Under the pieces are notes generated by a model. The model was not told where the DNA came from. It did no database searches and saw nothing but the letters and a program-made list of their open reading frames with translations. A program made the translations under genes and the position numbers. A DNA stretch of 64,000 nt from an uncultured virus (IMG/VR IMGVR_UViG_3300009034_000029) (taxonomy: Duplodnaviria; Heunggongvirae; Uroviricota; Caudoviricetes): the IMG/VR virus record IMGVR_UViG_3300009034_000029. One strand, 5' to 3'. Below are positions 4,345-63,010 of this stretch, piece by piece (the first letter of the stretch is position 1; each line of letters begins with the position of its first letter).

Positions 4345-4530
4345 AGGAGGGTCCGGTGAGAACGAGTATGGGTCAAAAAATAAGATGTCCGAGGAAAGGA
4401 TGTGGAAGGATATTGCATGTGAAGGGTAAGTCGTATCTTTTCGTGCGATGTCTATGTGGGTATGGTGCACAAGCTCCAAATACTTCAGAAGGTAGAGTAA
4501 TGATTGCAAGTCTTAGTAGGAGGAAGGCCA

Positions 4531-6110: not shown

Positions 6111-9100
6111 ATGGAAGTAATTATGAAGGTGAAATGGATTAGTGTACAACAAAAAGGTGAAGTTAAACATTACCGTACCCCTTCAGACATCAGAGAACAT
6201 ATGGCACTAATAGGTACAGTATACAGTCGAGTACTAAATGTAAAAGCAGATAACGATGGGTTCAGTGTTTTGTTAATAAAAAGAGGCGAAGTACATACTG
6301 GACATATTAAACCACAAATAAGATTCATTGTAGGGAGGTAATAACATGTTATGGGATCGTATTGAAAGTCTTTTTATACGGTTTAAAGGATGGTGGTGTG
6401 AGAACATTGGACATGAATGGACAAGTCATGTTATAGATAATACGAAGTATACTATATGTTATAGATGTGGTAGTCTTAAAGAAGAGGTGATATAATATGT
6501 CTGGTAAGAAAAAGAGATATAAAGGATTTGCAGAAAAGTTAATGGAAGAGCATTATAAAGAAATAGATGAGCAAGGAGCTTACAAAGATCTTAAACCAGA
6601 AATGTCCGAAGAGGAACTTAATGCAATGGAAGATGATGAGGTGATAAATAGTGCCGATTGTGAAACAGAAGGTAGGGAATGATAGTAATACATATATTAC
6701 TGTAGATCCAGGTAAGGATCCTATGGGACGGCCTAAGAAGATTGTAATAATTGTACATGATCCGAAGGCTGAGATACAACCACGTGAGAGTGCATGGACG
6801 GAGACTATACATATAAAGGTGAAGTGAATGACTGACTATCCAAGGTATTGTCCGAAATGTGGTAAACAAGGAAAACTCAAACGAGAGGGTTCCGGTTGGC
6901 GATGTCGTAGTTGTGGGTATGGGTTTATACCTATATTGAAGAGACCGACAACTGCAGCTAGTACATTTGCGGATGTAGTAGTAAGGAGAGATAAGTAATG
7001 GATGGTTATTCTAAAAAAGAGTGGGAGAGGATAATGGAAATGCAGACTGAGTGTGTATGTGATATATGTATAAAGAATAAGAATTGTGAGTTACAAGATA
7101 AGATCATCGAACAAGTAAAATTAAAAAACCCAAAAGCAAGTAGAAGGTTCGAGATGAAAGAATGTCCCGAACTTGTAGAAAAACCAAATTTAAGTGATTT
7201 CATAACGTGAGGTGATAAAGAATGTCGTATGATTTCAAAGCAGAAGATAAACCAGTTCCTCAAGAAGAACCCAAAAAGGAAAAGAAAGAGAACAAGTGGA
7301 TAAAGTGGCTTAAAGACTTTATACAGACCAAGAAGTTCGTAAAGGCTACAGTGACTGGTAGTACACTACTGGTAACTCTGATATTGATTGCTTTGTTGAT
7401 TAGTATGTCAGCTGGCCCCGGAGCAGTAGGCCTTTTTGGAATAGGAGTAGCTGCAGGTGTATTTGCAGAGGCAATGTTCCTCTTGATGATGGAGAAAACA
7501 TAAATGGATAAATGGAAAATTTGGAATATGATGTGGCTGCTAGGATTTTTTGTAATGGCAGTTGCAATCATAATCCTAATAGGAGGTATGATATATGGTA
7601 CAATGTGAATATTGTAAGGATGAGATCAATCCAGAGGTTGATTCTCATGTGATATACAAGAAAGTAGTATACACGAGCATTGAGGAGTTTCTTCAGCGTA
7701 GAGCTGTTTCAGAGATACATGAGTACTATTATTGTAGTGATGAACATTTACTCAATGATCTTATACAAGATGGTGTGGAGATACCTGAAGATATGATTCC
7801 AGTGAGAGAACCAGAACCACCACCTTTTGACCCAACGGAGTTGGATTAAATGAGATTGATAAAGACAATCTTGGATAAGATTAGAAAGATGAATTGTCCA
7901 ATATGTGGACGGTTCATGAAGAGAACTACTCATCCATGTCGGTATATTAGGGATGCACAAGTCACTGCATTTAGATGTGTTAGTGATGGATACGGTGTAG
8001 CAGAGTTGGTATAGATGGTCAAGGATAAAAGATTAATTGGTGGTTATGTAGATTTCGAGGAAGAGAAACTCATAAAACGAGCAGTGAGTATATATAATAT
8101 GATTAGACCTATAAAGTTAGGTTCACAGATACGATGCGAATGGATGGATGCACATGTTGGCAATGATGTCGAGAAGGATGATTTGCAAGATATTACAACG
8201 ATTATAACATATGGGGTATTGTATCAGGTAGGTTTTAATCATATTGTGATTATCATGGAACACTACGGTGATAAAGATGTTGATATATTTCATCCTGATA
8301 TGGGAAGAAAGGTAACAGTGGTACCTACTTTGAATATAGTGAAGATTGAGGTGAAGCAATGATAATCTGTGAATATGGATTTGAAGCAGAGGATTCAAAC
8401 AATCCTGGATATTCAATATTAGAAGTGGACTATTATGCTTGGATACCAAGTGCAATGAGGAAGACTATGCCAAATCATAGGTTGTCATTGAGAAAGAATC
8501 TCAAGACTAACGAGTATGAAGTATACAGACATTTTGTAAGAGCCATACAAGGTATGTTGATACTCGGTGGAAAATTTACACCAAAAGTACGTACACATAT
8601 CAGTGCGAGGACTCAGGATGAAATAGCATTCAAGTCGAAGAGTTTACAGGATGCAGTGAGTTTTGCAAATAGTAAGTGGAATAAGTATCATGCAACAAAG
8701 GACTACAAACGTATGGATGATGAGGTGTGTATACATAAACCACCAGTGTTACATTGGATGTGTAGAAAATTCTATGGAGATAATAAGAATGACGTGGCCA
8801 AAAAGGATTAAACTCGACAATCGAAATGTAAGGTTCATATTGGCTATGCTTAACGACAGAAAGTTGATTACCCTATTCCCGAAGGATAAGAATACAGATC
8901 AACCACAAGAGAAATATGTACAGTGGCTAGGAACTATTCGGACCAAATTCAAGGATTTAGGTAGAACTCAGTGGCAAATCATTGCTACGCCTGGTGTTCA
9001 AGCGCGGGATCCTATGAAAATGTCAAAAGAACCTGATTTGAGAAAGAGGAGGTGACTGTATGGTTAAAATACAGGATTGGTTGGATCAGATAACAGACTC

Positions 9101-11578: not shown

Positions 11579-12661
11579 TTGATGTCTGAAGAAATTAACC
11601 CAACAATAGCGGAACAGCTAACTGGCTGGGCAACCTCCCATAAGGAGAAGCCCGAGAAGTACATAAAGATCTTTATGGATAAGATGGTTGATGTGGAGTC
11701 ACATCATCCTAGCTGGTCTGTAGAGAAAAAAGAAGAACGTGCAATATCTTTAGCACGTGCGGAAATTAAGGCTCTACGGAGAAGCCCTGCGATTTACTTC
11801 ACAGGGTTCATATTAGGAGCATCTGCCCCACGAGATATTTATGGACATCTAAGGGTTAGAGCAAATCAAGCGGCACAAGAAGATTTCGATAAAGCAGTGC
11901 GGGCTCGATTGGTAAATCCAGATGGGGAGCCACTAGATACACGGAAGAACCTAAGTTCAGGTAAGCCGAATCCGAACTATATGAAGAAAGTACCCCCAGC
12001 AGTCTTTATTAAGAATGTTGTGGGTGCAGTAGCACCAGAGACCGATCCAAAAGCTATGAAGCCATTTGTCATGAATATGACGAGAGAGATGGCTCAGGCT
12101 AGAGTACCAATAGGAATTAAGGCTAAATTCCGAGCCAATATGCAGAGACGAATGCCAGAAGATCGGTATTTATTGAATAGTTCGGTATATACAAGATTCG
12201 AAGAACTACCAGATGAAAGCTGGACTGAACAGGCCAAAATAGAGATGTTGCAGAAACATCCAGGATTTGTTCCGTTAGGGAAGTTAATGGATTGGAATGC
12301 AGCGAATGTCGCTGATATGCAGAAGGTTATTGTAACTGAAGGGGATGTTGTAGCTGTGTCTACACAACCTTCAGAGACAGGTAATCTTCGAATGGTACTG
12401 GAAGATACGTCCTTAGGAATGGATGCAGATCCAGTTACGGTGTTTATGTCGGGTGATATGAACATCGATTTCGGACCTGGAAGTAGAGTGTTAGTTATTG
12501 GACGACTGAATGTCGGCCGAGGTCTGAACAGAGAAACAGGGCAATTAGATCCAAACATTAAAGTACCCGTTATTGCTGGGTATGGAATATATTCAATGCC
12601 AGAATTTAGGAGACCACCAGAAGAAGTTTCTCCACAAGAGTTTAAAGACGTAAATCTATAG
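11579..12661 (+). CDS. Putative OB-fold ssDNA-binding (RPA/SSB-like) protein
   Basis: C-terminal OB-like strand pattern (VTEGDVVAV...MVLEDTS...FGPGSRVLVIGRL); located upstream of a recombination-type ATPase. Confidence 0.55.
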   Translation: MMSEEINPTIAEQLTGWATSHKEKPEKYIKIFMDKMVDVESHHPSWSVEKKEERAISLARAEIKALRRSPAIYFTGFILGASAPRDIYGHLRVRANQAAQEDFDKAVRARLVNPDGEPLDTRKNLSSGKPNPNYMKKVPPAVFIKNVVGAVAPETDPKAMKPFVMNMTREMAQARVPIGIKAKFRANMQRRMPEDRYLLNSSVYTRFEELPDESWTEQAKIEMLQKHPGFVPLGKLMDWNAANVADMQKVIVTEGDVVAVSTQPSETGNLRMVLEDTSLGMDADPVTVFMSGDMNIDFGPGSRVLVIGRLNVGRGLNRETGQLDPNIKVPVIAGYGIYSMPEFRRPPEEVSPQEFKDVNL

Positions 12662-12761
12662 GAACGTAAGATATTGGTATGCTCGACCAATATGCCTCCT
12701 TGTAAGAGGGGATGGTCAGTTATGATTCTTCCCCGCATACCTCCTACGAAATTCCTATAGA
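12655..12761 (+). ncRNA. Structured RNA closed by a bulge-helix-loop motif
   Basis: 10-bp stem tctataggaa/ttcctataga, 4-bp helix cgta/tacg, 3-nt bulge aaa; inner stems ggtatgc/gcatacc and cctc/gagg. Confidence 0.55.
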
Positions 12762-12771
12762 TAATTCATAA

Positions 12772-12885
12772 GGGAAGGACACAGGAAAGCATACGTGGGA
12801 GTTAATCCCATTGTCAGCGACGAGCCTACAGGGAGTAGGTGCGGTTCAATTCCGGACTCGTCGTATGTCCTAGATTGTCCTTTCC
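12772..12885 (+). ncRNA. Structured RNA closed by a BHB-like motif, containing a tRNA T-loop-like hairpin
   Basis: gggaaggaca/tgtcctttcc stem; cagg/ccta helix with aaa and gat bulges; gcatacg/cgtatgt; internal cgg-TTCAATT-ccg; followed by a T-run. Confidence 0.65.
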
Positions 12886-12904
12886 ATTTTTTTGTTAATA
12901 TGAG

Positions 12905-13693
12905 GTGACCAAGTTGGGCTGGACTAGTATGAAAACTGAGGAACAGAAGAAAGTAGAGATGGATGTAAAGCCAAGTGAGGTATTTACTCCTATTAAACAG
13001 GCTAAGAGGAGAAAAGGATTAAAAATTGCTATTGCTGGAAGGGAGGGATCTGGAAAGACTCACTTTGGATGTACTTGTCCTCCTCCGATTTATTTTATTG
13101 GGACTGAATTTGGAGTTGAGCAGGTGGCCAAGAAATTTAATAAGGAGATTCATCTCGTAGAGGCTGTGTATATTGATCCTAAGACTGATGAGATAGATCC
13201 CTTAAAGAGTTTAGATACAGTTGAAAGGGCAGTAAGGTCAGTAAGACATATTACGGAAGGGACTATAGTATTGGATACCGTTACTGCTATATGGAGTTGG
13301 CTTGGAGATTGGTTGAAGGTTATATATGATGCGGAGGTTAAACAGAAGAAGTTTTTCCAGTTCATGTGGGGACCTGCGAATAGACGATATGATGGTATAA
13401 TATTGAGATTGTTGAGTAGAGATACAACGGTTGTTTTTACTGGACAAAAAAGAGAGGTATGGATTGGGAAAGACAGACAGCCTAATTTATGGGAGCCAAA
13501 ATGGCAGAAAACGACTCCTCATTGGGTTGATGTGTTTATTGATATTAACAGTAATTTAAAAGCTGATGGAGGATATATCCACACGGCGAATATACCGAAA
13601 TGTAGGTTTAAGCAGTTGAATAGTGCGATGTTGGAGCCAATCACCTATCCTGCGTTAATAAAGAAGTTTGCAGAAGAGGGAGTTAAATGGTAG
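12905..13693 (+). CDS. P-loop ATPase (AAA_24/Sak4-like recombination ATPase)
   Basis: Walker A GREGSGKT, Walker B TIVLDT; downstream of the SSB-like gene. Confidence 0.75.
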   Translation: MTKLGWTSMKTEEQKKVEMDVKPSEVFTPIKQAKRRKGLKIAIAGREGSGKTHFGCTCPPPIYFIGTEFGVEQVAKKFNKEIHLVEAVYIDPKTDEIDPLKSLDTVERAVRSVRHITEGTIVLDTVTAIWSWLGDWLKVIYDAEVKQKKFFQFMWGPANRRYDGIILRLLSRDTTVVFTGQKREVWIGKDRQPNLWEPKWQKTTPHWVDVFIDINSNLKADGGYIHTANIPKCRFKQLNSAMLEPITYPALIKKFAEEGVKW

Positions 13694-13825
13694 CATGGTA
13701 TGTATCGAGAGATAGTGGGCAAACTGAAGATGATTCGAGAGTTTATACTGTTAGGGATACTGAAGGAATGATTGATAAGATGCTTGCTAATGCAAGATAT
13801 GGAGCTGTAATAACATCTGAGGGAT

Positions 13826-14104
13826 TTGAAGATCATGATATATGAAGTACAAGAGAAGTTATTAATTGAGGAATTGGCTAAACGATTACATAATGCTTGG
13901 TGGGAGGAATCTAAAAGACAACAGAGAAAATATTCAAGTATGATTCCTTATGAAGAGTTAAGTGAGGAGCAAAAGAATTTGGACAGAGCGTGTGCACATG
14001 CGGCAATAGTTTTTTTTGCTCAAATGAAATCAAAAGGTGTGTTGAGTCTTATTACGAATAAGCCAACTCCACTCCTTCCAAAAGGGAGGCATAGTTTACC
14101 ATGA
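13826..14104 (+). CDS. RyR (ryanodine receptor repeat) domain protein
   Basis: ELAKRLHNAW...MIPYEELSEEQKNLDR matches the RyR repeat consensus. Confidence 0.7.
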   Translation: MKIMIYEVQEKLLIEELAKRLHNAWWEESKRQQRKYSSMIPYEELSEEQKNLDRACAHAAIVFFAQMKSKGVLSLITNKPTPLLPKGRHSLP

Positions 14105-14868
14105 TGAAGACAGGATTAGGATTATGTTTGATAGGACCAGTCTCGTTACGACAGTTCATTGAGACTAATACAGATAGTCATTTCTTAATTGCAACGATTG
14201 CGAGTAAGGATGAGGTATATAAGAATTGGTATACTGAGTCTGATAGGTATAAGATTATTGATAATGGAGCTTATGAGGATAAAGATAGAAACCCTATGGG
14301 AAGTGAGGATCTTATAAGTATGGCTATTGAAACTAAATCGAATGAGATCTGTGCACCTGATAAGATGTTTAATAGAACGGATACTATTGTTAGGACTGCA
14401 CAGTTCTTAACGATATTATCAAGTGAGGAGAGAAAGAAATTTACTATTATGGGAATTCCTCAGGGGAAGGATGTGCCTGAGTGGATTAGTTGTTATAAGG
14501 ATATTACTTGTATGGAGGGTATAGATACAGTAGGATTGCCAATTTGGTTGGATAGGAAAGGAGGAAGACCTGCAGTAGTTGCATATATGTCTAAGAAGAA
14601 TATTTTAAAGGAAGGTATGGATCATCACTTGTTAGGATTAGATAGACCAGCTGAATTGTTTTGGTATTCAAACAATTCGGTTGTAAGGTCTGTTGACACG
14701 AGTTTACCTATATCATGTGCATGGGATAAGATAACTTTAAATCCAATAGGTGCTCCACCAAAACATAAGAGGGTGCCATTGATTAATTGTAATGATAAGA
14801 TTAATAGGAATTTATTGATACACAATGTGGAGGTGCTACGATATGCAGCGAGAGGATTCTCAAAATAA
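14101..14868 (+). CDS. dpdA: TGT-fold transglycosylase, DpdA-like (7-deazaguanine insertion into DNA)
   Basis: TGT/DpdA motifs IIDNGAYE, APD, IPQG, HHLLG, SVDTS; queE and queC in the same genome. Confidence 0.7.
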   Translation: MMKTGLGLCLIGPVSLRQFIETNTDSHFLIATIASKDEVYKNWYTESDRYKIIDNGAYEDKDRNPMGSEDLISMAIETKSNEICAPDKMFNRTDTIVRTAQFLTILSSEERKKFTIMGIPQGKDVPEWISCYKDITCMEGIDTVGLPIWLDRKGGRPAVVAYMSKKNILKEGMDHHLLGLDRPAELFWYSNNSVVRSVDTSLPISCAWDKITLNPIGAPPKHKRVPLINCNDKINRNLLIHNVEVLRYAARGFSK

Positions 14869-15622
14869 GACTGCGAGTGGCAAATGTCCATATTGTAATA
14901 AGAATATACATTTAAAAGCTGATGGGTTTGCTATTGGTGATAAAGCCCTATGTGGGGGTTGTAATAAAGTATTTTATATAGCAGGCGTTGAGGTGGAAGG
15001 TAAGGATATACGACTTACTACCTCAATATATAAATGGATTAGAGAAGGAGGTTAACATATGGTTAAATGTCCTTATTGTGAGGTAGAATTGAATCCTCCA
15101 GAGAAGCATAACCTGTTTGTGGATTGCAGTGCATGTGGGAAGTCATTCTATGTAGTGAAGACCGAAACAGGTTGGGAAGGTTCAAAGACTCCTCAGAAGA
15201 TATATAAGAAATCAAAAACAAGTTTGGTAGTAGAGAGTCCAAAGATTAAAACCGAAATTGAAAGGCCAAGGATTAAAACTGAAATCGAGCCAGCCGTTGA
15301 AGAGTAAAGGAGTGTAGGTCCTCGAAAGTTGCTGTTTCCATAATAGTTCACCTGTAAATCTTTCGTCACTTCGCTCAACTTAACGGTGGGTGATTGTATG
15401 CCAAGAAATGAACAAGAATTAAAAAAGGAATTGGAAAAGCACGGTATGCTTCTGGTAGCGGTGGGATTGATAGTTATAGCCCTTACGGGATATGCATCTA
15501 TTATTGGATATCTATCGTTAGCAGAAATGGCAATCATCATATTGCTGGGATTTCTTCTATTGAGTATCCGAGCAGTATTGATGTTATTGGCAACCATTGC
15601 AGAGATCCAGATAAGAGGGTAA
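14825..15622 (+). CDS. Two Zn-ribbon proteins (14825-15055, 15059-15307) and a small membrane protein (15398-15622)
   Basis: CPYC...CxxC pairs; two hydrophobic helices in the last ORF. Confidence 0.65.
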
Positions 15623-15623
15623 G

Positions 15624-16236
15624 TTGTCTCTTAGTACCACGAACCTGAGAAGGCAGGGTACTAGTCACTAGCTTTCGTGTCTTACGAATCGAGGACGCAA
15701 GTCTTACCGAGGAGTTTGACAAGGCCACAAACCTGAACAGTCACGAGCCGGTATATGTAGAGACATTTACATAGAGGCATATGCGTATGTGACTGTATGG
15801 CCACAATCTGACTTAGTGACGTGGGATACACGAGACTGAAATGCGACTTAGACACGTTTTGTCACCGCAAAACTTTTTTTGAGTCGCTTGCCCCACTAAG
15901 ACAGACACAGACCTGGGATACGCACAATTGGCACGGAGTGCAAATAGCACAAACCCGACCGGATCGGTTCACGTTGATAATCGAGGTTGAAAAGCCTAGA
16001 TGGGCTCGTGCTGTAAGGATTAGAAGGGTTGAAGAAACCTAGTACAATCCGCGGCGAGTTAAAAGTAGTCATTTAGGATCTAATATCGTGTCAGCACGGT
16101 ATTAGAGTACCTCGGCCAATTGGCCAACGCGATCCCTAAGGGAGTTAAGGGTTACCCCGTGGTGTGGGTGTGCAGTATCTAGAGTTAATGACTTAAACAG
16201 GTATTCGTGTCTCAGGGTGGATATATTAAGAGATAA
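15624..16236 (+). ncRNA. Large (~600 nt) highly structured ncRNA closed by a canonical bulge-helix-bulge
   Basis: 13-bp outer stem, ccac/gtgg 4-bp helix with gaa and ata 3-nt bulges, 7-bp inner stem; many internal hairpins; no convincing SD-led ORF. Confidence 0.75.
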
Positions 16237-16254
16237 TATAGGGGGTTTCTGTCA

Positions 16255-17012
16255 ATGAGTTCTCAAGAACGGATTTATAAGGTTTATGAGTTGATTAAAA
16301 GAAAACCTCGAAAGATAGAGGAAATTGCAGATATCTTACAGATCAAGCGTCGGACGGTAAGTAGTTATTTGAAGACATTAAGAAATTGGAAAATGGTTGT
16401 ATCGACAGCATTATTGGATGATGGCAGAGTAAAGATTCATCACACACCTAATAAAAAGCCTATATGGAGGATGAATGGAATTGGAATTAAGCAAGAGGCA
16501 TAAGTTCTTTTTAGAGGTATTTGGTGTCTGTATAGGAGCCGCGATAGTGTTTGGTAATTTCGTAACACTAGCGATTGTGTTAGTGTTTTTTGTAATATGG
16601 ATGATTATTGAATTTACATGGTCATTAAGAAATTTAATAATATCTTGGAAAGAGAAAAGAACGTCCAGGAGGCGTTTGCGTGGTGAATAAAAGACCAGTA
16701 AGTATTAAAAGAATGAGAACGGATAATGAATCCGCAGGCATAAAAAAAGGCACAATGGTAGTCTACGAATGTGGACATACGGAGTATAGTCTCGATCCGG
16801 ATTATAGACCAACATTTTGTCCGGCATGTAAAGTACAAACTAAAGAGACACAGGTAACAACTACTACGTCAGGTGCTACATTCATGACATATCCTTGCGG
16901 ATGTGTTGTGCAGTACTATAAAGGATTTATGGATGTTACGTTGTGTGAAATGCATAAGAAGATGTTAACCCAATACCCTGATGTGGGTAAGGCCCACATA
17001 CCGGAAGTTTAG
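16255..17012 (+). CDS. wHTH protein (16255-16503), small membrane protein (16475-16690) and Zn-binding protein (16680-17012)
   Basis: KIEEIADILQIKRRTVSSYLKTL HTH; hydrophobic segment; CGH..CPAC motifs. Confidence 0.65.
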
Positions 17013-17096: not shown

Positions 17097-17765
17097 ATGA
17101 AGGTTACTAGCATATTCTATTCTGTTCAAGGTGAAGGACAGAGCTTGGGACAGCCTTCTGTCTTTCTGAGATTGAATGGGTGTAATTTGAGATGTAAGTG
17201 GTGTGATACGAAGTATACATGGGCTGAAAGTGATGGGAAGGATATGAATATATCTGAGATTGCTTTTGGTGAGATAAAGAAATATCCTACTGCTAATAGG
17301 TTGGTTATAACTGGTGGGGAGCCTTTAATGCAGGCTGATGAAGTAGAGAGACTTATAAATGTATTACGGGAACAAAAAGATTGGTGGGTCGAAATTGAGA
17401 CTAATGGGACTATATCGCCTACCTTTAATAGTCCGAATTTATGGACAGTAGCTCCGAAGTTGAGTAATTCAGGAGTACCAGATTTTAAAAGAAAGATTAA
17501 GCAATCATGGTGGGACTATAGTTCTACAGGTAAGCTTATAGTGTATAAGTTTGTTGTAAATGATCCTGAGGATTCATGGGAAATTTTTGAATTTCAACAT
17601 AAGCATGGAATACCTTCAGAGAAGATTTACGTTATGCCGGAGTGTATAACTGTTGAGAAGCATAATGAGAATTTATTGTTGGCTATTGAAATGGCGAAGA
17701 ATAATGGGTGGAGGGTTACTCCTAGATTACATATACTAGCATGGGGGAATATACGAGGTGTCTGA
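17097..17765 (+). CDS. queE: 7-carboxy-7-deazaguanine synthase (radical SAM)
   Basis: IFYSVQGEG, CNLRCKWCDTKY, ITGGEPL, IETNGT, PKL, PRLHI motifs. Confidence 0.92.
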   Translation: MKVTSIFYSVQGEGQSLGQPSVFLRLNGCNLRCKWCDTKYTWAESDGKDMNISEIAFGEIKKYPTANRLVITGGEPLMQADEVERLINVLREQKDWWVEIETNGTISPTFNSPNLWTVAPKLSNSGVPDFKRKIKQSWWDYSSTGKLIVYKFVVNDPEDSWEIFEFQHKHGIPSEKIYVMPECITVEKHNENLLLAIEMAKNNGWRVTPRLHILAWGNIRGV

Positions 17766-21529: not shown

Positions 21530-22154
21530 GGCTAGGATAATTATATGTCTCGAGAGTATGGATTATGATTTTCTGATGTCATGTAATGTACCGAATATTA
21601 AGGCATTAGATCCACACCCAGCTAAGTCGTGGGGTGGACATACGAGAGCATCTGTTCCTGCATTACTGGCTGGATTGATGCCAAAGTGTACTGTGAAGGG
21701 ATGTACAAAGCATGGCTATTTTAGATCTGGTCCTATGGAATTAGCAAGTTTCCATAAGGAAGGTGCATTATTTTTATATATACCAAACGGATGGATTTTG
21801 GAGTTAATTGATCATTATGTGAACTCTATTCAAAGAAAGCGGTTGATGTATTGGATAAATCATTTGAAGGATCAGCCCACAAAACAAATGGTTAAGGCCC
21901 TCCAAATGAATTTAATGGGACGTAGGGAGTATCTTGCATATCTCCACGTTATGGAAACACACTCTCCATTCTTCCCAAGTAATCCTAAGTCTGAGAATAG
22001 AAGGAAGGATGCGTTGGAGGAAGTAGATAAGATGATTGAGCCATTGTTGTTTGGATATCCTGAGGCTCAAGTTATTGTTACATCTGACCATGGGTTAAAA
22101 CATAATGAATGGAATGAAGGTGCATTTGATGTCTTTATTGCGACTAATAGGTAA
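21522..22154 (+). CDS. Alkaline phosphatase/sulfatase superfamily protein
   Basis: IICLESMDYD, T.ASVPALL, HVMETHSPF, VIVTSDHG. Confidence 0.7.
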   Translation: MTKARIIICLESMDYDFLMSCNVPNIKALDPHPAKSWGGHTRASVPALLAGLMPKCTVKGCTKHGYFRSGPMELASFHKEGALFLYIPNGWILELIDHYVNSIQRKRLMYWINHLKDQPTKQMVKALQMNLMGRREYLAYLHVMETHSPFFPSNPKSENRRKDALEEVDKMIEPLLFGYPEAQVIVTSDHGLKHNEWNEGAFDVFIATNR

Positions 22155-22929
22155 AACTAGGTCTATTATCAATTTTGTGAAGAACAAGTTTGATGATAAT
22201 GAGATTGGTATATTTTGGAGTGGAGGGAAGGACTCTACTGCTATGTTACATTTGATTGGAGAGACATGTGGGGAGATACCATGGCAGGTAGTGTATGTAA
22301 ATACTGGTTATCACTTTCGGGAAACACATAACTTTATTAGTAAGCTAAGCGATACATGGCAATTTGATGTCTGTCATATCTTGGCTGAATCACCTCGTAC
22401 ACCTAATAATTCTACTGTGAAGGAATGTTGTTATTCAAGAAAGACATATCCGATAAAAGCTACAATTGAGGAGTTTGAATTTAAAGGTGTATTTGTTGCT
22501 ATACGTAGGGACGAGCATGGTGTAAGAAATAAGGAGAGATTTATTTCTCCAAGGGATCAAGGTCTTAAATGGAACATCAAGGAGCAAGACACTGAGCTGT
22601 CCGGATGGAATATCTACTATGCAGATTATGGTGATCAATGTCATCATTTTAGGATACATCCATTGTTACATTGGAATGAAGTAGATGTATGGAATTACAT
22701 TAGGGACTTTGAGATACCTGTGAATCAGTTGTATTTTTCGAAGAACGGTAAGAGATATAGGTCGTTAGGATGTAAGACTTGTACGGTTCCTATAGAGAGT
22801 AATGCAGTCACTATTGATGATATGATTAAAGAGATTAAATCTGACCGTTGGGGTGAAAGAGACGGTAGGTGGAGTAAAAAAGATATGACAATTATTTATG
22901 AGCATATGAGAGCATTAGGATATTTCTGA
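22105..22929 (+). CDS. cysD: Sulfate adenylyltransferase subunit 2 (CysD; PAPS-reductase superfamily)
   Basis: WSGGKDS, IRRDEHGVRNKERFISPRD, RIHPLLHWNEVDVWNYI, RYRSLGC..CT.PIES, ER.GR. Confidence 0.82.
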   Translation: MNGMKVHLMSLLRLIGKTRSIINFVKNKFDDNEIGIFWSGGKDSTAMLHLIGETCGEIPWQVVYVNTGYHFRETHNFISKLSDTWQFDVCHILAESPRTPNNSTVKECCYSRKTYPIKATIEEFEFKGVFVAIRRDEHGVRNKERFISPRDQGLKWNIKEQDTELSGWNIYYADYGDQCHHFRIHPLLHWNEVDVWNYIRDFEIPVNQLYFSKNGKRYRSLGCKTCTVPIESNAVTIDDMIKEIKSDRWGERDGRWSKKDMTIIYEHMRALGYF

Positions 22930-25047: not shown

Positions 25048-25578
25048 ATGACAGAAGTTAGAAGATCTGTACAAATAGCTGAGATTGGGATATTTGCGGC
25101 ACTCTATGCAGTGTTGACTTGGTTCTTGGCTCCGATTAGTTATATGGCGATACAGTTTAGGATGTCGGAGGTATTGAAGTCAGTGGTAATTAAACGGAGG
25201 CATATAATATTGGCCTTCGTGTTTGGTGTTGCATTGAGTAATGCATTTAGTCCATATGCGGGTATTTGGGAGTTTATCTGGATGCCATTCATCAATCTGA
25301 TTGGTGGCTTCGTATGTTGGGTAATTGGATCGAGATTTGCATACTATGTAAATATTAGTGAAGGACGAGCGTATAATATAACAGCGATATTTGCTTGTGC
25401 AGTGTACGGTGTAATCATTGCAGGTGGAGTAGCAATTATGTTGGACTTCGTATTGGGTATACCATTTATGGTATTGATTGGACCATTAGTGATCAGTGAA
25501 GTAGTGTTGTTAATAGCTTCGGCCTTGATTGTCTTACCCTTAGTAGATAAACTACCAACTTGGAGGGAGATGATTTAA
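25048..25578 (+). CDS. queT: QueT-like membrane transporter component (queuosine precursor)
   Basis: AALYAVLT..LAPISY.AIQFRMSE signature; multiple TM helices; adjacent to queC. Confidence 0.8.
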   Translation: MTEVRRSVQIAEIGIFAALYAVLTWFLAPISYMAIQFRMSEVLKSVVIKRRHIILAFVFGVALSNAFSPYAGIWEFIWMPFINLIGGFVCWVIGSRFAYYVNISEGRAYNITAIFACAVYGVIIAGGVAIMLDFVLGIPFMVLIGPLVISEVVLLIASALIVLPLVDKLPTWREMI

Positions 25579-25593
25579 CTCCCTCCCTTTTTT
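25562..25593 (+). terminator. Hairpin plus T-run
   Basis: ggagggag-atgatttaa-ctccctcc followed by ctttttt. Confidence 0.5.
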
Positions 25594-25610
25594 ATTATGG
25601 AGTGATGATG

Positions 25611-26339
25611 ATGAGTAATAATAGAAGAGTAGTAATATTATGGAGTGGTGGAATTGATTCTACTACCTTAGTATGGTGGGCAAAAAAGAAAGGAATGGAT
25701 GTTCGTACTCTGACTATTTATTATGGTCAGAAACATACTAAGGAAACTTCCTTCGTAGCGAAGCTTACAGAGAAATTTAGGATTGATAATAAGACTGTGG
25801 ATTTAGGAGCAATCCAGCCTCTTATTGATTATGGTGCACTAACTGGTACTGCTAATGTACCACAAGGTACGTATGATGAGAAGACCCAAAGAGTTACTAT
25901 TGTTCCAAATAGGAATATGATATTATTAGCCATTGCCGCTGGGTATGCTATAACATTGGGATCGTCGGTTATATTATATGCGGCTCACAGGAATGATCGT
26001 AGTATATATCCAGATTGTAGACCAGTGTTTGTTAATGCCATGAATGCTGCAATAGAAGCGGGGAATGTTTGGAGTCCCGTGGAGATATGGGCTCCTTTTA
26101 TTGATTATTCGAAGACTGAGATTGTAACGTTAGGTTTGAAATTAGATGTTCCATATGAGGATACTTGGAGTTGTTATGAAGGTGGAAGGAAGCCTTGTGG
26201 TAAATGTGGGACTTGTTTGGAGAGAACGGAAGCCTTTATGAACAATGTGGCTAATGACCCAGCATTGAACCCCAAGGATTGGATTAAGTTTATGGGGTAT
26301 TATAAGGATGCCAGAATTAGTGACGGTAACAAAACATAG
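25611..26339 (+). CDS. queC: 7-cyano-7-deazaguanine synthase
   Basis: SGGIDST, YGQKH, VPNRN, YPDCR, TWSCY, CGKCGTC.ER. Confidence 0.95.
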   Translation: MSNNRRVVILWSGGIDSTTLVWWAKKKGMDVRTLTIYYGQKHTKETSFVAKLTEKFRIDNKTVDLGAIQPLIDYGALTGTANVPQGTYDEKTQRVTIVPNRNMILLAIAAGYAITLGSSVILYAAHRNDRSIYPDCRPVFVNAMNAAIEAGNVWSPVEIWAPFIDYSKTEIVTLGLKLDVPYEDTWSCYEGGRKPCGKCGTCLERTEAFMNNVANDPALNPKDWIKFMGYYKDARISDGNKT

Positions 26340-37437: not shown

Positions 37438-40225
37438 CCCTCGTACTGGTAACTTCTCTTAACCTTGCCCTAAATTTGACATCCTCAATTCTGCCACTTT
37501 GATGTTGGGGTTGGAATAAATCAACCACACATTTTATCACATGCCTACCAGTCATTACATACACTGGCTTCTTCGAACTAGCCCAATCACCGTATTTATC
37601 CTTATCCTTTAAAAAGGTCTGTGCAGCCAATACACCATCAACACTGATTTGTCTGGCCTCAAAACCCCTAATAACTATATAATCATCCCTATCCAAAATA
37701 GTCTGCCTACTAGCCAACATACGTCTATTAATATCAAACTTCGTATCAACACACATTACTTCCGGAACGTCTGGATGCTCTCCTAGATACACAGCTTTTT
37801 GTTGTTGTTTGGAAATATCTATATGTTCCAATTGAGCTGACCAACCATCAGTTTGTGGGACAAGATCATTACTCGTGCCTATTAACATAGGAACACTATT
37901 TAGCCCCAAAGAAGGACATCTAATCAATGCATCAAACTTTAACCCAGTATATCTAACCCAACCTGCATGTACCTCACTCTCTGTATCTGCTGCTGAATTC
38001 AATTCAACCTTAATATACACAACATTCGAATCAATATCATCAATCTCAAGAACTTTACCATTGGCCTCACTTCTAAAGTCCTGATTACTTCCAGACCCAT
38101 TTACACTTAATAATAGCGTCCACGTATAATTATCAACACTATAATACACCTTAAACCTACCAGATGCAACTTCATTACTTGATATATATCCACCAACATT
38201 CAAGTCTATCTTACCAAACTTCCACCCAGCAGGTAATCTAAACTCACTCACATAACTTGCAGTCGAACCAATTGTAGTATTATCAGACCATCCAACAGTA
38301 TACCAAACATCCTTATTAGTCCCAACCCATGGTTTCCTCGGACTATACCCATAATAATACGGATACCCACTAGTATCTATAATCGACCACCATAATGGAT
38401 CACAATCACCAATGGCTTCAGTATACAACCTACTATCATATAAATACCTACCATGACCGGTTGGCTCAATAGTAATTGTAGTTCCAGGCACTACCCTACT
38501 AGCTTCTAATCTCTTCCATGAAGTCTGATTCTCCAGCACTACATCAGACTCTCTATCATAATGAAGTTTAAAGTACATATCGTAAGTTGTATTATACCAC
38601 GTACCGTTATCATATCTCCATAATATCCCATCATCATACGGGCCAGGATTTTGAGTCCTTACTTTCCTATAATGAGAATCATTCTCAGTAGTATTACTTA
38701 ATACAATTGCATACATAGTCCCAGGAGTCAACTCTACCCCCAAATTCACATATATCGCGGCATCAGGTTGTGCTTCAAGACGATCCCATATTTCATACGG
38801 AATTATAGTTCTCGCTAATTTCCAATTTGTATACGGTTGATTAGACCCATCCACTGGAGTAACATCAATCCTTATATCAGTCGTTGGAGTACCAAAATCA
38901 GCTCCGGGCATAATAGTCAAACCTCTCAACCGTGAACTTTGTGCAGTAAATGTTTGTCCAAGTCTTTGATAATTACCAGTAGCCGTAGTACCAAATTGTG
39001 TTTCAATATTCTCCGAAATATTAGCCTGATCTACAATCTCAACAATAGGATTACCAGTAACATCAACTTTAGGAGCCGAAGCTAATAAATTCGTTCCAGT
39101 TCTAGTAATTGTAGCAGTATCATATTGAAATGCAGGAGTATAAGGCTCCACAGCAACCCAATTCCAATACATAGTATTAGAAGTAACCTGCACACGACCC
39201 ACCCTAACAGAACCTCTATAAGTCTTCGTAATCTTCGTACTTGTAGCTATAAGTTCACTATTGAAATAAAATGAAGAAGTATTCCCATACACATGTATCT
39301 CAAATGGATATCCAACACCATATGTTATGGCAGTTGGCAATGCAGTCCAACTAATCACATCACCATCCTGATCAACCAACTTATATTGGTCTGTCGAGGA
39401 ATTAATATGCCACCTATAATATATAGTCCCTGCACTATTACACCTAAATGTAAATGTAGCCTCATTATCACCAGTAACAAACTGCATTGTTCCGCTCAGT
39501 ATGTAATCTCTCCACTCAAACGACTCTGGATATAATGTTGGGTCTAATCTAGCTTCAGCAGTTCCACCCAACATTGTCATTGTTCCGTTACCTATTGCTG
39601 CAACTCTCACAATATCATCTACTTCATCCCATTGAGATGGAGGATAACTACCACCTGATTTTTCGTTCATAAAATTATCAAAAAACATCTGACGTGGACT
39701 CAAAACCAAATCATCAATCCAAGCTTCGCCAATCCTCGTTGACGTACTTGTATGAGTAACATAAACCCTAATATAATTTATTACCTTAGCATTTGTAGAA
39801 TAATCAGCCTCATCATACGTCCAACCTTGAGCCTTTTCATTTCCAGGAGCAAAATCTAATATACACTGATTACCTGAATTAGTCCCATCAATGTAATAAA
39901 ATATACAATAAATCTGTACAGTCCCACTAGAACCACGTTGTATGGATTTTGCCCAAGCACTCAATCTCCATTTATCCATTCTTGCATATTTCAGTGTTGG
40001 ATATATATCCTGATGTATGGTTGTACTGACCTCAGAAGGATAAACATTCACATAAAGACTTTTACTCCCAATACGTGATTGATCACCAACAATCTCAGCC
40101 TTACCTGAGTCTTGTACCCAAGGACAATTATCCTCATTTAACCCATAATCCTCAAACCCAGGATCCTTAATCAAATTAGGCATAGCCATTATACTAGGCT
40201 GAATTGTATGTGTTTGGCTAACCAA
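37424..40225 (-). CDS. Large tail protein paralogous to 34177-37437
   Basis: NLIKDPGFE, GQTF.. module and similar C-terminus. Confidence 0.7.
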   Translation of the reverse strand: MVSQTHTIQPSIMAMPNLIKDPGFEDYGLNEDNCPWVQDSGKAEIVGDQSRIGSKSLYVNVYPSEVSTTIHQDIYPTLKYARMDKWRLSAWAKSIQRGSSGTVQIYCIFYYIDGTNSGNQCILDFAPGNEKAQGWTYDEADYSTNAKVINYIRVYVTHTSTSTRIGEAWIDDLVLSPRQMFFDNFMNEKSGGSYPPSQWDEVDDIVRVAAIGNGTMTMLGGTAEARLDPTLYPESFEWRDYILSGTMQFVTGDNEATFTFRCNSAGTIYYRWHINSSTDQYKLVDQDGDVISWTALPTAITYGVGYPFEIHVYGNTSSFYFNSELIATSTKITKTYRGSVRVGRVQVTSNTMYWNWVAVEPYTPAFQYDTATITRTGTNLLASAPKVDVTGNPIVEIVDQANISENIETQFGTTATGNYQRLGQTFTAQSSRLRGLTIMPGADFGTPTTDIRIDVTPVDGSNQPYTNWKLARTIIPYEIWDRLEAQPDAAIYVNLGVELTPGTMYAIVLSNTTENDSHYRKVRTQNPGPYDDGILWRYDNGTWYNTTYDMYFKLHYDRESDVVLENQTSWKRLEASRVVPGTTITIEPTGHGRYLYDSRLYTEAIGDCDPLWWSIIDTSGYPYYYGYSPRKPWVGTNKDVWYTVGWSDNTTIGSTASYVSEFRLPAGWKFGKIDLNVGGYISSNEVASGRFKVYYSVDNYTWTLLLSVNGSGSNQDFRSEANGKVLEIDDIDSNVVYIKVELNSAADTESEVHAGWVRYTGLKFDALIRCPSLGLNSVPMLIGTSNDLVPQTDGWSAQLEHIDISKQQQKAVYLGEHPDVPEVMCVDTKFDINRRMLASRQTILDRDDYIVIRGFEARQISVDGVLAAQTFLKDKDKYGDWASSKKPVYVMTGRHVIKCVVDLFQPQHQSGRIEDVKFRARLREVTSTRDDDE

Positions 40226-41255
40226 TCCTCATAACCTCCTTGGAGATTTGATATCGTATCTGTTCAAACGTACAGTAGTCTTCTGGAATTTCAGTAAGGG
40301 ATTTCCCACCAGACCGTAAGTGACAAACCTTATAACATCCCCCACAAGGATACACCAAACAGTTATAACACTGTTCATGATCTAGACCTCTCCAAAACTC
40401 AACTTTGTTTTTGTCTACTCCAGTCTCAACATGACCTATCCTAAACTCTGGTTGTATCAGACGATGACAAGGATAAATAAACCCATCTAAACCTACGGCA
40501 GTCGAACCTTGACAGGCTCCACAGGTCCAGCGAGAACGAGTATGCCTTGGCATCTTTTTCTGCAACCGAGTTATGGTCTTATCAACAAAAACTATCGATA
40601 TATCATTTTCTTTTGCCCAGTACGCGGCCTTACGATATTGTCTTTCCAATTCCTTAAAATCATTAATTGTGTAAGTCCTATAGCTATCAACAACTTTATT
40701 AAACGCAATACTCTCAAACCCAATCTTCACAGCCTCCTTAACACTATCAACCAAATATGGGATAGCTTCAGGGCTAACCGCCATTGCACAGCGTAAATTC
40801 AAGAGATGATAAACACGCATGAGGTTGATAGTCCTCGCAACTAACGGATAACTTTCCCTTCCATTCCACATTGGTCGCATGTAATTTTGGACGAACGGAA
40901 CCCCATCAAACGAGACTAGGGCGCCAAAATCATTTTCTGCAAAATACTTGACCCGCTCGACATTCCAAGGAGTCCCGTTCGTTGTAACACCAGCACGTAC
41001 GATCCTTCCCCTTTCACGTTCTTCAAGTACCCTCTTAAATGTATGTTTGACGAGATGCCAGGAGAGCATTGGTTCGGTACCAAACAAAGATACACTACAT
41101 TTACCGGAGGCTTGGCCGAAGAACCAATCGAGCGTGGAATCTAGTAGCCCCACTGACATCTCATCTTTACCTTTATCCTGTAGGAAACAATACCTACATT
41201 TCATATTACACTTATCATTAATATGTAACACTACGCTGGAAAATTCTATCGACAA
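40218..41255 (-). CDS. Radical SAM/SPASM domain maturase
   Basis: CNMKCRYC, FGTEP, TTNGT, VSFDG; SPASM CGAC...DGFIYPCH...CYNC...CGGC...C...YC. Confidence 0.9.
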   Translation of the reverse strand: MSIEFSSVVLHINDKCNMKCRYCFLQDKGKDEMSVGLLDSTLDWFFGQASGKCSVSLFGTEPMLSWHLVKHTFKRVLEERERGRIVRAGVTTNGTPWNVERVKYFAENDFGALVSFDGVPFVQNYMRPMWNGRESYPLVARTINLMRVYHLLNLRCAMAVSPEAIPYLVDSVKEAVKIGFESIAFNKVVDSYRTYTINDFKELERQYRKAAYWAKENDISIVFVDKTITRLQKKMPRHTRSRWTCGACQGSTAVGLDGFIYPCHRLIQPEFRIGHVETGVDKNKVEFWRGLDHEQCYNCLVYPCGGCYKVCHLRSGGKSLTEIPEDYCTFEQIRYQISKEVMRIG

Positions 41256-49298: not shown

Positions 49299-50388
49299 TC
49301 ATGGTTTCTTTTCTGGTGGTGGTGGAGGAGGAGCTCCTTTAGGTTGTTCTGGAACTATACCTTGCGCTCTTAATGCCATTTCTTCAAGTCTCTTGTATTT
49401 GGTTTCGAATTCCTCTTGCATCTTTGCTAATCTAACATCGTACTCAGACTTTGACATCCCAAATTTTCTCTCTTTTAGTTTCCATGCACCATAATCAACA
49501 ACCATATGTGCTATTTCCTCAAAGAAATATCCAGTACCAAAAGCAACTATTAATGCCCAATTCCAATAAAAGTCTGGGAATATAAACAATTGCCATGTTC
49601 GGGAGAGTATCTCTCCGCCAATAACAAACACACATACAAATATCCCAAAATACTTATAGTCAAAGTCCTTCAACGAACCCTTCTTCTTTTTAAACCAATA
49701 TGGATAGGCCATCCTGAGTGTTTGTCCTAATAGTAATCCCAACATAATCATCCATGTAGTAAATGGTATTCTTGTCCACCAAAACGGATCTTGCATCATA
49801 TATCACCTCTTAATATCCTGGTATGAATCGAACTATAAATTCTCTTAATAACTCAAAGATCAGTACTAAATCAAACGGGAGTTGGATACCCATCATACCT
49901 AGTAACCAAACTAATGTTCCCGCAAATAATGTGAAGAACCCCGTGACTATTGCTATAAATGCTACTAGAGACCATCCGAAAAGTTTTCCAATAAACGCTG
50001 CAAGAACCCACAATGGATGAGGATCCTTTTTCTCCAACTGCTCAGTAATTGTTTCTGCTAAACTTTTAACCTTCTTCCCAACAAATTCTTGGATCTTTCC
50101 TGCAACGGCTGCAAACATTTGTTCTTTCTCAATCTGTTGCAGAAGTCTTCTCAGTTGTCTCGGCCTTCTCTTAAATTTATTTAAGATCTTAAAGAGGAGG
50201 GTTTGTCCTTCTTGAAGATTGGCCACTTCCCAACCAGCTAACACTACAAATTCTGATCTCTCTGTCTCAGACATACCCGCGCCCTTTTGCATTAAGTAGT
50301 TTAATCTTTCTCTATTCACCTCATACGGAAGTTTAATAACTTCACCGAGTAGCTCCAACTGCTTTTGTTCTTCTGTGGCCTCGCTCAT
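49299..50388 (-). CDS. Two membrane proteins (49299-49799 holin-like; 49810-50388)
   Basis: TM helices plus coiled-coil or Pro-rich tails. Confidence 0.55.
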
Positions 50389-61687: not shown

Positions 61688-62173
61688 CTACGACCCCACA
61701 ACTACTGTCTCTGGCTTTTCTTTCTCTAGGAACTTCCTAAATTCAACCTTACAGTCTTCACATGCATGTTCCAGCATATAGGACTGAAATCTTTCTAATT
61801 GTGCTTGGTTGTTTTGAATTATGATCATATGATCGGGCATATTCTTTCCTCTAAGTTTCTGTATGTCTTGTGCTAACTGACTGAGCTCACGAATGTAATC
61901 TTTAATAGCTCTTTCCACACGGGGGTCTATGTCTTTTGTCATTAACCCCTCGAGTCGTTCCTGGACACGGTCATACATATTTTCTAATAACTTAACACGA
62001 TCTTCTACACTCACATATTTATCTAATATATGATTCTTCATATGCATCCAGATAATTTTCGGATCGGCTTTTAACTGTTCCCCGACATCGTGCGCGGACA
62101 GTGAACCTAATGTCAGTTGCTTCTCGTAGTATCTTCTATTCGGTGCCTTACAAAGCGGACAATTTCCGGTCAT
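61688..62173 (-). CDS. Putative terminase small subunit
   Basis: First gene of the late operon; CPLC...HTH...HMKNH followed by a coiled coil. Confidence 0.6.
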   Translation of the reverse strand: MTGNCPLCKAPNRRYYEKQLTLGSLSAHDVGEQLKADPKIIWMHMKNHILDKYVSVEDRVKLLENMYDRVQERLEGLMTKDIDPRVERAIKDYIRELSQLAQDIQKLRGKNMPDHMIIIQNNQAQLERFQSYMLEHACEDCKVEFRKFLEKEKPETVVVGS

Positions 62174-62189
62174 ATAAACACAACCAAGT

Positions 62190-62222
62190 ACAAAGAATTA
62201 TTCTTTTGCGTGTATATAAAGC
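62190..62222 (-). promoter_or_regulatory. Late-operon TATA promoter
   Basis: - strand gctttatatacacgcaaaagaataatt ~40 nt upstream of the TerS ATG. Confidence 0.6.
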
Positions 62223-62359
62223 TTCGTATAGGGCTCACAGCATTATATTATATCCTGTTTTGGAGTTAGCAAAAAGAAACTTGTGTTAGCAACACAATGT
62301 TTAGAAACAGGGGTAATTTGTTTAAGTCAGGTGTTTAGCGTTTTTGCTAAAAGAAACAT

Positions 62360-63010
62360 TTGCAATTTATAATGTAATGTTAATTAAATAGATAATTATT
62401 AAATTAAATAAATAAAATATTATTGTATATAAAATTTTATTATAAAATTAGATGATAGGTTATATATATAATCAAGATGTTATATAATTAAAAGTTTGTA
62501 TATAAAAATAAATAAGAGGTTAAATATATATGAAAAATGTTGAAAAGATAGATAAACATCTATTTAATTCGAAATTGATTGATATAGTATTAAAAATTGT
62601 TATAGAAATAGTAAAATGTAAAAATAATAAAGAAAAGATTTATATATATACGGAATTGTTTTATTATCAATGGAATAAGTTAATTAAATAGATAGATAGT
62701 TAATTAATCAATTAAACTATTATTTATATATAGACTATTTGATATAATCAAGTAGTCATATAAATATATAGGAGAAGATCTATATAAAGCATAAAGTAGC
62801 TAATCAAATACGAAGATTGTTGAATAAGCAAGAGAACAGTTATATAATCAAGCATAAGCTTAAAACTATAAAGCTAAACAAAGATAAATAGATAAACGCT
62901 TATTTAACTAGCAAGAAGTTTGAATAAGGAAATGATCTGTTGAATAAATAGACAGATCATTATACTTTATATTGACTATTTATAAATATAGATAGTCATT
63001 GATACATTCA
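62360..63010. other. Very AT-rich divergent intergenic region with short repeats (candidate origin/control region)
   Basis: Repeats atataatcaag and (t)aaatagata; located at the strand switch. Confidence 0.5.

Follow-up and report, generated by a model that had tools for sequence, protein, structure and literature searches.

Three folded intergenic elements in the genome of an uncultured tailed virus (Caudoviricetes; IMG/VR record IMGVR_UViG_3300009034_000029) may be RNAs that an archaeal host releases with its tRNA-splicing enzymes. The stretch analysed here, the window, is 64,000 nt long and represents most of a ~67-kb genome from a sediment metagenome. The largest of the elements, E3, is closed by an exact bulge-helix-bulge (BHB) motif; archaeal cells cut BHB-shaped stems when removing tRNA introns. 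Our preferred explanation, to which we give somewhat less than even chances, is that the virus encodes E3, E2 and, less surely, E1 as structured RNAs that form part of its transcripts and are bounded by the motif of the archaeal tRNA-splicing endonuclease (EndA); they would be probable substrates of that enzyme of the host. All three elements are free of open reading frames (ORFs), lie on the + (coding) strand and occupy gene-free gaps flush with the neighbouring genes. An initial annotation of this DNA had described three such intergenic folded elements, and this description is borne out: compared with dinucleotide shuffles, their folding z-scores range from -3.6 to -7.1.

E3 shows the complete hBHBh' arrangement: an outer stem of 14 bp (including three G.U pairs), a 3-nt bulge, a central helix (H) of 4 bp, a second 3-nt bulge and an inner stem of 7 bp (Table 1). 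When E3 is folded with 60-nt flanks, the pairs of H form with a probability of at least 0.975 and the bulge bases are unpaired with a probability of at least 0.957. The closing rod as a whole comprises 46 bp, nine of which are G.U. The fold energy is -217.6 on the + strand versus -178.7 on the - strand, a difference of 39 kcal/mol in favour of the former, and the interior stripped of the closing stem has a z of -4.17 on + and -3.08 on -. The difference between the strands, the z of the interior and the G.U pairs in the rod indicate that E3 is an RNA of the coding strand and not a DNA repeat. The element starts one base past the stop codon of an ORF for a 78-aa product (15386-15622) and ends 18 nt before the ATG of a regulator gene at 16255. 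Its excision joins no reading frames. A single variant was seen in the elements: one contig of the DNA run has G in place of A at 15852, which would convert an A-U pair of the predicted fold to G.U.

The initial annotation held that all three elements share one closing geometry. This is exact for E3, extends to E2 with one C.A mismatch, and fails for E1 except in its 3' half; the structural premise thus holds fully for E3, nearly for E2 and by half for E1. E2 has the same 3-4-3 geometry as E3, but its minimum-energy fold rearranges the C.A corner. Its interior contains a hairpin with a T-loop-like 7-nt loop (12842-12854) beside a stem of 5-7 bp, a combination that fits no known fold. In E1 the outer stem and H form with a probability of at least 0.915 and the AAA bulge is unpaired with a probability of at least 0.998; the element is at best a relaxed bulge-helix-loop form. 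Such a relaxed form is accepted only by splicing endonucleases of broad specificity, which are known to exist (PMC3239211, PMC3488258). As the initial annotation had stated, two of the elements sit at an upstream stop codon: E1 overlaps that of the 360-aa gene (ORF 11579-12661), and E3 begins one base after that of the 78-aa gene. E2 and E3 both fold better on the + strand than on the - strand. The interiors of the elements are richer in G+C than the genome, and the three have no terminal sequence in common. A stretch of the E1 interior (12690-12705) is complementary to 15767-15782 in E3 at 14 of 16 positions; this is one of 16 inverted pairs in 3.7 kb and may be due to chance.

Table 1. Positions of the folded elements, their parts and other features in the window, and of BHB cassettes in related viruses (H, central helix; dG, fold energy; z, against dinucleotide shuffles).
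Feature	Position	Strand	Details
E1, folded element, 107 nt	12655-12761	+	dG -35.8, z -4.25
E1 outer stem	12655-12664/12752-12761		10 bp
E1 H	12665-12668/12745-12748		CGTA/TACG
E1 3' bulge	12749-12751		AAA
E1 5' side	12669-12675 vs 12742-12744		7x3 internal loop
E1 inner stem	12676-12682/12735-12741		7 bp, set back behind the loop
E2, folded element, 114 nt	12772-12885	+	dG -44.9, z -3.64
E2 outer stem	12772-12781/12876-12885		10 bp
E2 H	12782-12785/12869-12872		3 pairs and a C.A mismatch at the outermost pair
E2 bulges	12786-12788, 12873-12875		AAA, GAT
E2 inner stem	12789-12795/12862-12868		7 bp
T7 run directly 3' of E2	12887-12893	+	likely archaeal-type transcription stop for the unit ending in E1/E2
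E3, cassette, 615 nt	15623-16237	+	branched structured interior; dG -217.6, z -7.13
E3 BHB 5' half	15623-15650	+	outer 15623-15636, H CCAC 15637-15640, bulge GAA 15641-15643, inner 15644-15650
E3 BHB 3' half	16210-16237	+	inner 16210-16216, H GTGG 16217-16220, bulge ATA 16221-16223, outer 16224-16237
U7 run within E3	15874-15880	+	weak A/U-rich hairpin before it; possible internal transcription stop
7-deazaguanine genes, together	14101-14868, 17097-17765, 22105-22929, 25048-26339		
L102 cassette	L102 3665-3801		outer 9 bp, H CCTG/CAGG, bulges AAA/ACA, inner 11 bp; 112 nt excised; score 57, z -4.06
L184 cassette (= L187 436-597)	L184 1032-1193		outer 6 bp, H GGCA/TGCC, bulges AAA/ATA, inner 14 bp; 143 nt excised; score 57, z -4.16
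G406 cassette	G406 49520-49707	-	outer 11 bp, H GCAG/CTGC, bulges TAA/ACT, inner 7 bp; 159 nt excised; score 53

We scanned both strands of the window with a strict BHB descriptor, which requires a 4-bp central helix with a 3-nt bulge 3' of it on each strand and further helices on both sides; spans of 20-1500 nt were allowed and the same scan was run on 32 dinucleotide shuffles. E3 is the top match. Its weighted pair score of 56 was reached by none of the 32 shuffles, whose maxima range from 39 to 51, and its base-pair sum of 21 was reached by one. In a relaxed scan (one H mismatch permitted, spans to 700 nt, 23 shuffles) E3 again ranks first, with no shuffle reaching it, and E2 comes second with a score of 48 that two of the 23 shuffles reach. 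These two elements lie on the same strand within the same 4-kb region. E1 is picked up by neither scan. A BHB-like match at 4395-4445 was rejected, as it lies inside a zinc-ribbon ORF, and a sliding fold scan was uninformative because its fixed windows mismatch the borders of the elements.

The virus has few relatives. Its Sak4-like protein has only two homologues among 5.8 billion proteins and its family-B polymerase (PolB) six. A contig of 2,428 nt encodes a Sak4 that is 83% identical, and one of 5,593 nt a PolB that is 92% identical. With the Sak4 alignment, JGI metagenomes yielded one relative, while IMG/VR and GTDB genomes yielded none, and three proteins flanking the elements have no close relative in IMG/VR. 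Family-level relatives were collected from protein alignments: the JGI metagenome locus, L001, and 80 IMG/VR loci from the PolB alignment. A conserved 389-aa protein led to 31 further loci, one of which is the window's own virus and was excluded from the scans. By tblastn, the window has ten genes in common with L083, where they stand in the same order, eight with L092, seven with L084, six each with L107 and L123, and five with L102. The strict scan covered 1.18 Mb in the 80 loci, 0.56 Mb in the 30 further loci and 0.33 Mb in five whole records; the three sets overlap partly, and G406 was scanned to 58,000 of its 58,482 nt.

Three more canonical cassettes were found, in L102, in L184/L187 and in G406. 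All are on the coding strand between co-oriented genes and contain no ORF of 70 aa or more, and their viruses belong among the relatives with 5-10 replication-module genes in common with the window. The L102 cassette ends 7-9 nt ahead of the next ATG, and that of L184 overlaps the final codons of the upstream ORF and ends just ahead of the next ribosome-binding site. Their bulges consist mainly of A; those of E3 are GAA/ATA. Among matches lying wholly in gaps of the 80 loci, the L102 cassette stands out with 57, ahead of a runner-up at 33. When 365 gaps were rescanned under looser stem minima, the top score was again 57, followed by 36, and eight gap shuffles peak at 33-40; E3 is missed in this rescan because spurious small ORFs break its gap. 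The cassettes that we count are distinguished by their position (free of genes, on the coding strand and flush with the adjoining genes), their mostly-A bulges and their folded interiors, and not by score alone.

Other repeats detected in the scans were not counted. A 953-nt module in G408 (C1:1202-2197, locus L205) has 18-bp inverted repeats with BHB spacing and contains ORFs. The genome is complete and has terminal repeats, and the module is close to one of its ends; its small ORFs include one for a zinc-ribbon protein, and it may be a mobile or invertible segment. L113:6155-6563 and L027:2711-3403 are long, nearly perfect inverted repeats with more than 80 bp per arm, and not BHBs; the former stands at a contig end and resembles an assembly fold-back, and the latter is in a Methanocorpusculum genome.

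An archaeal host is plausible for this virus. PolB is nearest to that of haloarchaeal tailed viruses, at ~25% identity, and both the T-rich runs without hairpins at unit ends and a Hef/Xpf nuclease fit archaea. A further argument for an archaeal host comes from the closest relative, L083, which encodes an archaeal C/D box small RNA (sRNA). This complete sRNA, at L083:6621-6678 (+), consists of box C, 12 nt, D', C', 12 nt, D and a short terminal stem; box C is exact and C' has one mismatch. Rfam aligns it end to end with archaeal sR1, at 35 bits (E 3.6e-5) where the gathering score is 45, and also aligns it with a Pyrococcus C/D model. It was the sole match when the window and eight relatives were scanned for the full C/D architecture, and such a virus-borne methylation guide would be interesting by itself. 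Predicted introns are present in 3 of 80 predicted tRNA genes of the PolB-related viral loci. A search of 401 Halobacteriota genomes gave one weak match to the terminase and no provirus.

The following course of events would account for E3 and E2. The flanks of the element would pair into the long outer stem and present two 3-nt bulges 4 bp apart. Host EndA would cut in both bulges, at 15642|15643 and 16222|16223 in E3 and at 12787|12788 and 12874|12875 in E2, and the host ligase RtcB would close the excised piece into a ring of 580 nt (E3) or 87 nt (E2). The ligase may also rejoin the flanks, which would leave a hairpin with a 7-nt loop between the genes. The sequence itself shows the folds, the exact geometry, its rarity in shuffles, its recurrence in relatives and the archaeal signals of the virus family; that the elements are transcribed in full, cut and ligated, and that the rings serve any purpose, is inferred. 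The interpretation in the initial annotation, by which the three elements would yield rings of 80, 87 and 580 nt, is partly supported, and the decoy, scaffold or EndA-titrator roles that it offered are speculative. E3 has about an even chance of being a real substrate of the endonuclease; for E2 this is possible though on balance doubtful, and for E1 it is unlikely.

Sequence, size and position of the inserts vary by virus, which suggests that they are either fast-evolving accessory non-coding RNAs (ncRNAs) with a shared processing signal or intron-like passengers. For E3 we lean slightly towards an accessory ncRNA because its interior is itself strongly structured. A broader proposal, which we consider unlikely, is that a family of archaeal tailed viruses uses the splicing endonuclease and ligase of the host as a general means of ncRNA delivery, so that any insert between BHB halves would be freed as a nuclease-resistant ring. 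If so, E3 would be a 580-nt viral circular RNA acting in infection, for example by binding a host factor or the splicing machinery.

Several observations weigh against processing by the host endonuclease, and the first concern conservation. E1 and E2 are missing in all six syntenic relatives (L001, L083, L092, L084, L107 and L102), where the junction of the 360-aa gene and the Sak4 gene holds a small ORF (L083, L092) or at most 67 nt (L084, L107, L102, L001). Compared with the 80 loci by blastn, E1-E3 give only matches of 13-24 nt with E of at least 0.59; E3 has a single chance-level match of 24 nt in the 401 Halobacteriota genomes. A blastn search of 12600-16300 against phages gave no match, nor did IMG/VR contain either of two exact DNA patterns taken from E3 and E2. 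No covariation test is possible, since no homologue of any element was found. The conservation of the BHB geometry among related viruses that the initial annotation looked for is therefore seen only in the sense that unrelated BHB cassettes recur in three of them, and not as homologues of E1, E2 or E3.

The genome-wide comparison with shuffled sequence that had been proposed as a check singles out E3 and, more weakly, E2, and not E1, and it reveals no overall excess of strict matches, with 724 in the window versus 676-818 in the shuffles. Since E1 misses the strict motif, its cleavage would require a broad-specificity endonuclease. Among the recurrent cassettes, that of G406 folds weakly against shuffles (z -2.5). 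Equal strict scores occur in coding DNA of relatives (58 in L123/L185 and 60 in L112, the latter antisense to genes in a low-complexity stretch), so the BHB motif can arise without this role; L156, L111 and L131 score 48-50. Cellular control loci, 355 kb in total, reach 47-54 once artefacts are set aside, all from GC-rich sequence, where the weighting inflates scores. These high scores in coding DNA and controls indicate that natural sequence is heavier-tailed than shuffles. The L123 match (7015-7173, identical to L185:3388-3546) is a perfect BHB with 12 + 4 + 12 bp inside a gene that reads as deoxyribosyltransferase-like. The piece that it bounds is 128 nt long, not a multiple of 3, and its loss would delete an apparent part of the fold. 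It is either a chance occurrence or an mRNA cleavage site.

Further points against processing come from transcription and from the enzymes. The initial annotation placed the elements in polycistronic mRNA, which is doubtful for E1 and E2 because both precede the T7 run; they may belong to the 3' end of a transcript and not to the interior of a polycistronic RNA. On the + strand of the + gene block, the majority of runs of at least six T are intergenic. TATA-like strings stand ~26 nt 5' of the predicted 5' cuts of E1 and E2, and given these strings the transcripts of both could start within the outer stems. In E3, the U7 run could halt an archaeal RNA polymerase before the 3' half is made. A search for sequencing runs that contain 12300-16600 found no RNA run, one DNA run and two runs of the same study with almost none of the sequence; no joints were seen in their contigs. 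Pfam, PHROGs and NCBIfam scans found neither EndA nor RtcB encoded in the window, and QueC is nearest to bacterial homologues (42-46%), with neighbours that mix bacteria and archaea.

The strongest rival explanation is that the elements are stable structured RNAs or untranslated-region (UTR) elements, such as sRNAs, mRNA stabilisers or protein scaffolds, that are never cut by EndA and whose likeness to a BHB is incidental to long stems with A-rich bulges. The departure of E1 and E2 from the strict motif, the equal-scoring BHB geometry in coding regions of relatives and the lack of an overall excess in the window all favour it, as does the 220-nt gap of L083 (6535-6754) that contains the C/D box sRNA and is structured (z -5.14) with no BHB. 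However, incidental likeness does not readily account for the exact 3-4-3 geometry of E3 with helices on both sides, which none of the 32 shuffles reaches. Nor does it explain why the exact geometry closes unrelated intergenic inserts in three relatives, which is hard to understand unless the geometry is under selection. We consider this rival rather unlikely.

The elements could also be intron-like passengers, excised by EndA, selfish or neutral and useless to the virus, and tolerated because excision restores a harmless hairpin. Their patchy spread is consistent with this: position, sequence and size (87-580 nt) differ per virus, and the syntenic sites are empty. In addition, L184 and L187 are 100% identical over ~360 nt (1024-1383), from the 5' edge of the cassette into the downstream gene, next to an upstream flank of 140 nt in which only 40-52 of 60 positions match per span compared, as after a recent exchange. 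On the other hand, E3 contains no homing endonuclease or other ORF with a Pfam match: its four inner ORFs of 45-73 aa match nothing at E <= 1. The cassettes have no common sequence and therefore are not copies of one mobile element, and the interior of E3 is more structured than a spacer requires. Passengers of this kind are improbable in our view.

A role in mRNA stability or translation and not in excision, with E1 and E2 as protective or terminator hairpins of a 3' end before T7 and E3 as the 5' leader of the regulator gene at 16255, appears quite improbable. The T7 run directly 3' of E2 would suit it, and so would the fact that the E3, L102 and L184 cassettes each stop 7-18 nt short of the ribosome site or start codon of the next gene. 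Yet the ribosome-site-like G run before 16255 falls outside the E3 stem, structures of 107-615 nt with branches far exceed what a terminator or leader hairpin needs, and the exact BHB geometry is left unexplained. Least probable of all is that the elements work as DNA, their inverted repeats belonging to a replication origin, a packaging site or the ends of a transposon, with incidental RNA folds: inverted repeats of 10-14 bp do bound each element, E1 and E2 lie in the replication module, and the G408 module has 18-bp inverted repeats with ORFs inside, but G.U pairs, which are mismatches in DNA, make up 9 of the 46 in the closing rod of E3, E3 and E2 prefer the + strand, no terminal sequence is common to the three elements, and their interiors are higher in G+C than the genome, unlike an unwinding element.

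The elements do not correspond to the RNA classes for which we searched. At default settings, ARAGORN predicts no tRNA gene in the window, with or without introns, none in 18,012 variants of 12640-12900 that each lack one stretch of 6-89 nt, and none in the doubled predicted circles, which were used as a permutation scan. Matches obtained with lowered thresholds were scattered throughout coding sequence and were discarded. Rfam 15, whose families include group I and II introns, RNase P, SRP, ROOL and GOLLD, gives no match at the gathering score in the whole window and none at E <= 10 in 12500-16400. C/D box sRNAs have no match in E1-E3; two half-motif matches elsewhere in the window are at chance level.

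Pfam, PHROGs and NCBIfam scans of the window identify a module of tail, capsid and terminase genes; the major capsid protein and the portal have no match among phage records. Genes point in the + direction up to ~34 kb and in the - direction beyond. The replication module, in which E1 and E2 sit beside the Sak4-like gene, encodes PolB, the Sak4-like AAA_24 protein, a PD-(D/E)XK nuclease and a Hef/Xpf-type ERCC4-HhH nuclease. In two relatives the Sak4-like gene is in pieces, two or three in different frames, at G404:C1:33937-35173 (with a gap of ~460 nt) and G406:C1:45570-46416 (loci L196-L200). No BHB was found at the breaks in either, and these split genes could reflect frameshifts, gene fission or another type of insert. 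The window also carries a set of 7-deazaguanine modification genes, for a weak DpdA-like protein, QueE, a CysD/PAPS-reductase-like protein, QueT and QueC, which suggests that the viral DNA is modified. Amid the tail genes, 40218-41255 (-) encodes a PapB-like radical SAM/SPASM peptide maturase, whose match (E 2.6e-52) falls short of the cut-off. At 62001-63000 the G+C content falls to 24.5%, against 38-40% elsewhere, genes are few and the strand bias switches; this region could be an origin or a genome end.

BHB-dependent excision is known from tRNA, rRNA, one crenarchaeal mRNA and one haloarchaeal 5' UTR, and the elements would be a new viral context for this known RNA-processing motif. A BHB motif in a viral genome was not found in full-text literature searches, which had most subscription journals outside their coverage and so do not prove absence. 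Should the cassettes be cut, archaeal viruses would make circular RNAs with the tRNA-splicing enzymes of their hosts. These would constitute a new viral ncRNA class and a virus-host contact of a new kind, and the cassettes would allow uncultivated viruses to be assigned to archaeal hosts from sequence alone.

The known systems resemble the cassettes in different respects. In the crenarchaeal cbf5 pre-mRNA, the tRNA-splicing machinery excises a BHB intron (Watanabe 2002 and Yokobori 2009, as cited in PMC7714728; PMC2738675). As described there, it is likewise a BHB element inside the transcript of a protein gene, but it interrupts the reading frame and its splicing is needed for the protein, whereas E1-E3 lie outside reading frames. 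The tRNA-Trp intron with a C/D box sRNA, as presented in PMC12558985, is a functional RNA delivered as an excised circular BHB intron; it has the C/D sRNA within a tRNA, while E1-E3 have no C/D boxes and are not in a tRNA. The circularly permuted signal recognition particle (SRP) RNA of Thermoproteus, a functional RNA that is neither tRNA nor rRNA, matures by BHB cleavage and circularisation (Plagens et al. 2015, PMC4731332). In the account given there the ring restores a known RNA; E1-E3, by contrast, contain no half of a known family, even at E <= 10.

The layout of E3 is that of archaeal pre-rRNA processing stems. According to PMC7714728 and PMC12558985, the flanks of 16S and 23S pre-rRNA form an extended BHB stem around a large RNA, and cleavage and ligation give a circular intermediate; in E3 a 46-bp rod surrounds a folded RNA of 580 nt. 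Unlike these precursors, E3 matches no rRNA or Rfam family and sits between viral protein genes. EndA also cuts non-tRNA BHB sites, including one in an mRNA 5' UTR, giving rings (PMC7714728). The BHB intron of 46 nt in the 5' UTR of Haloferax volcanii HVO_1309 is cut by the splicing endonuclease in vitro, and the excised piece occurs as a circular RNA (Schwarz et al. 2020, PMC7714728). In that description, the HVO_1309 intron is cellular, 46 nt long and conserved among haloarchaea, whereas the present cassettes are viral, 87-580 nt long, not conserved and predicted. As in HVO_1309, the canonical BHB of the cassettes would stand in non-coding mRNA sequence just 5' of a gene.

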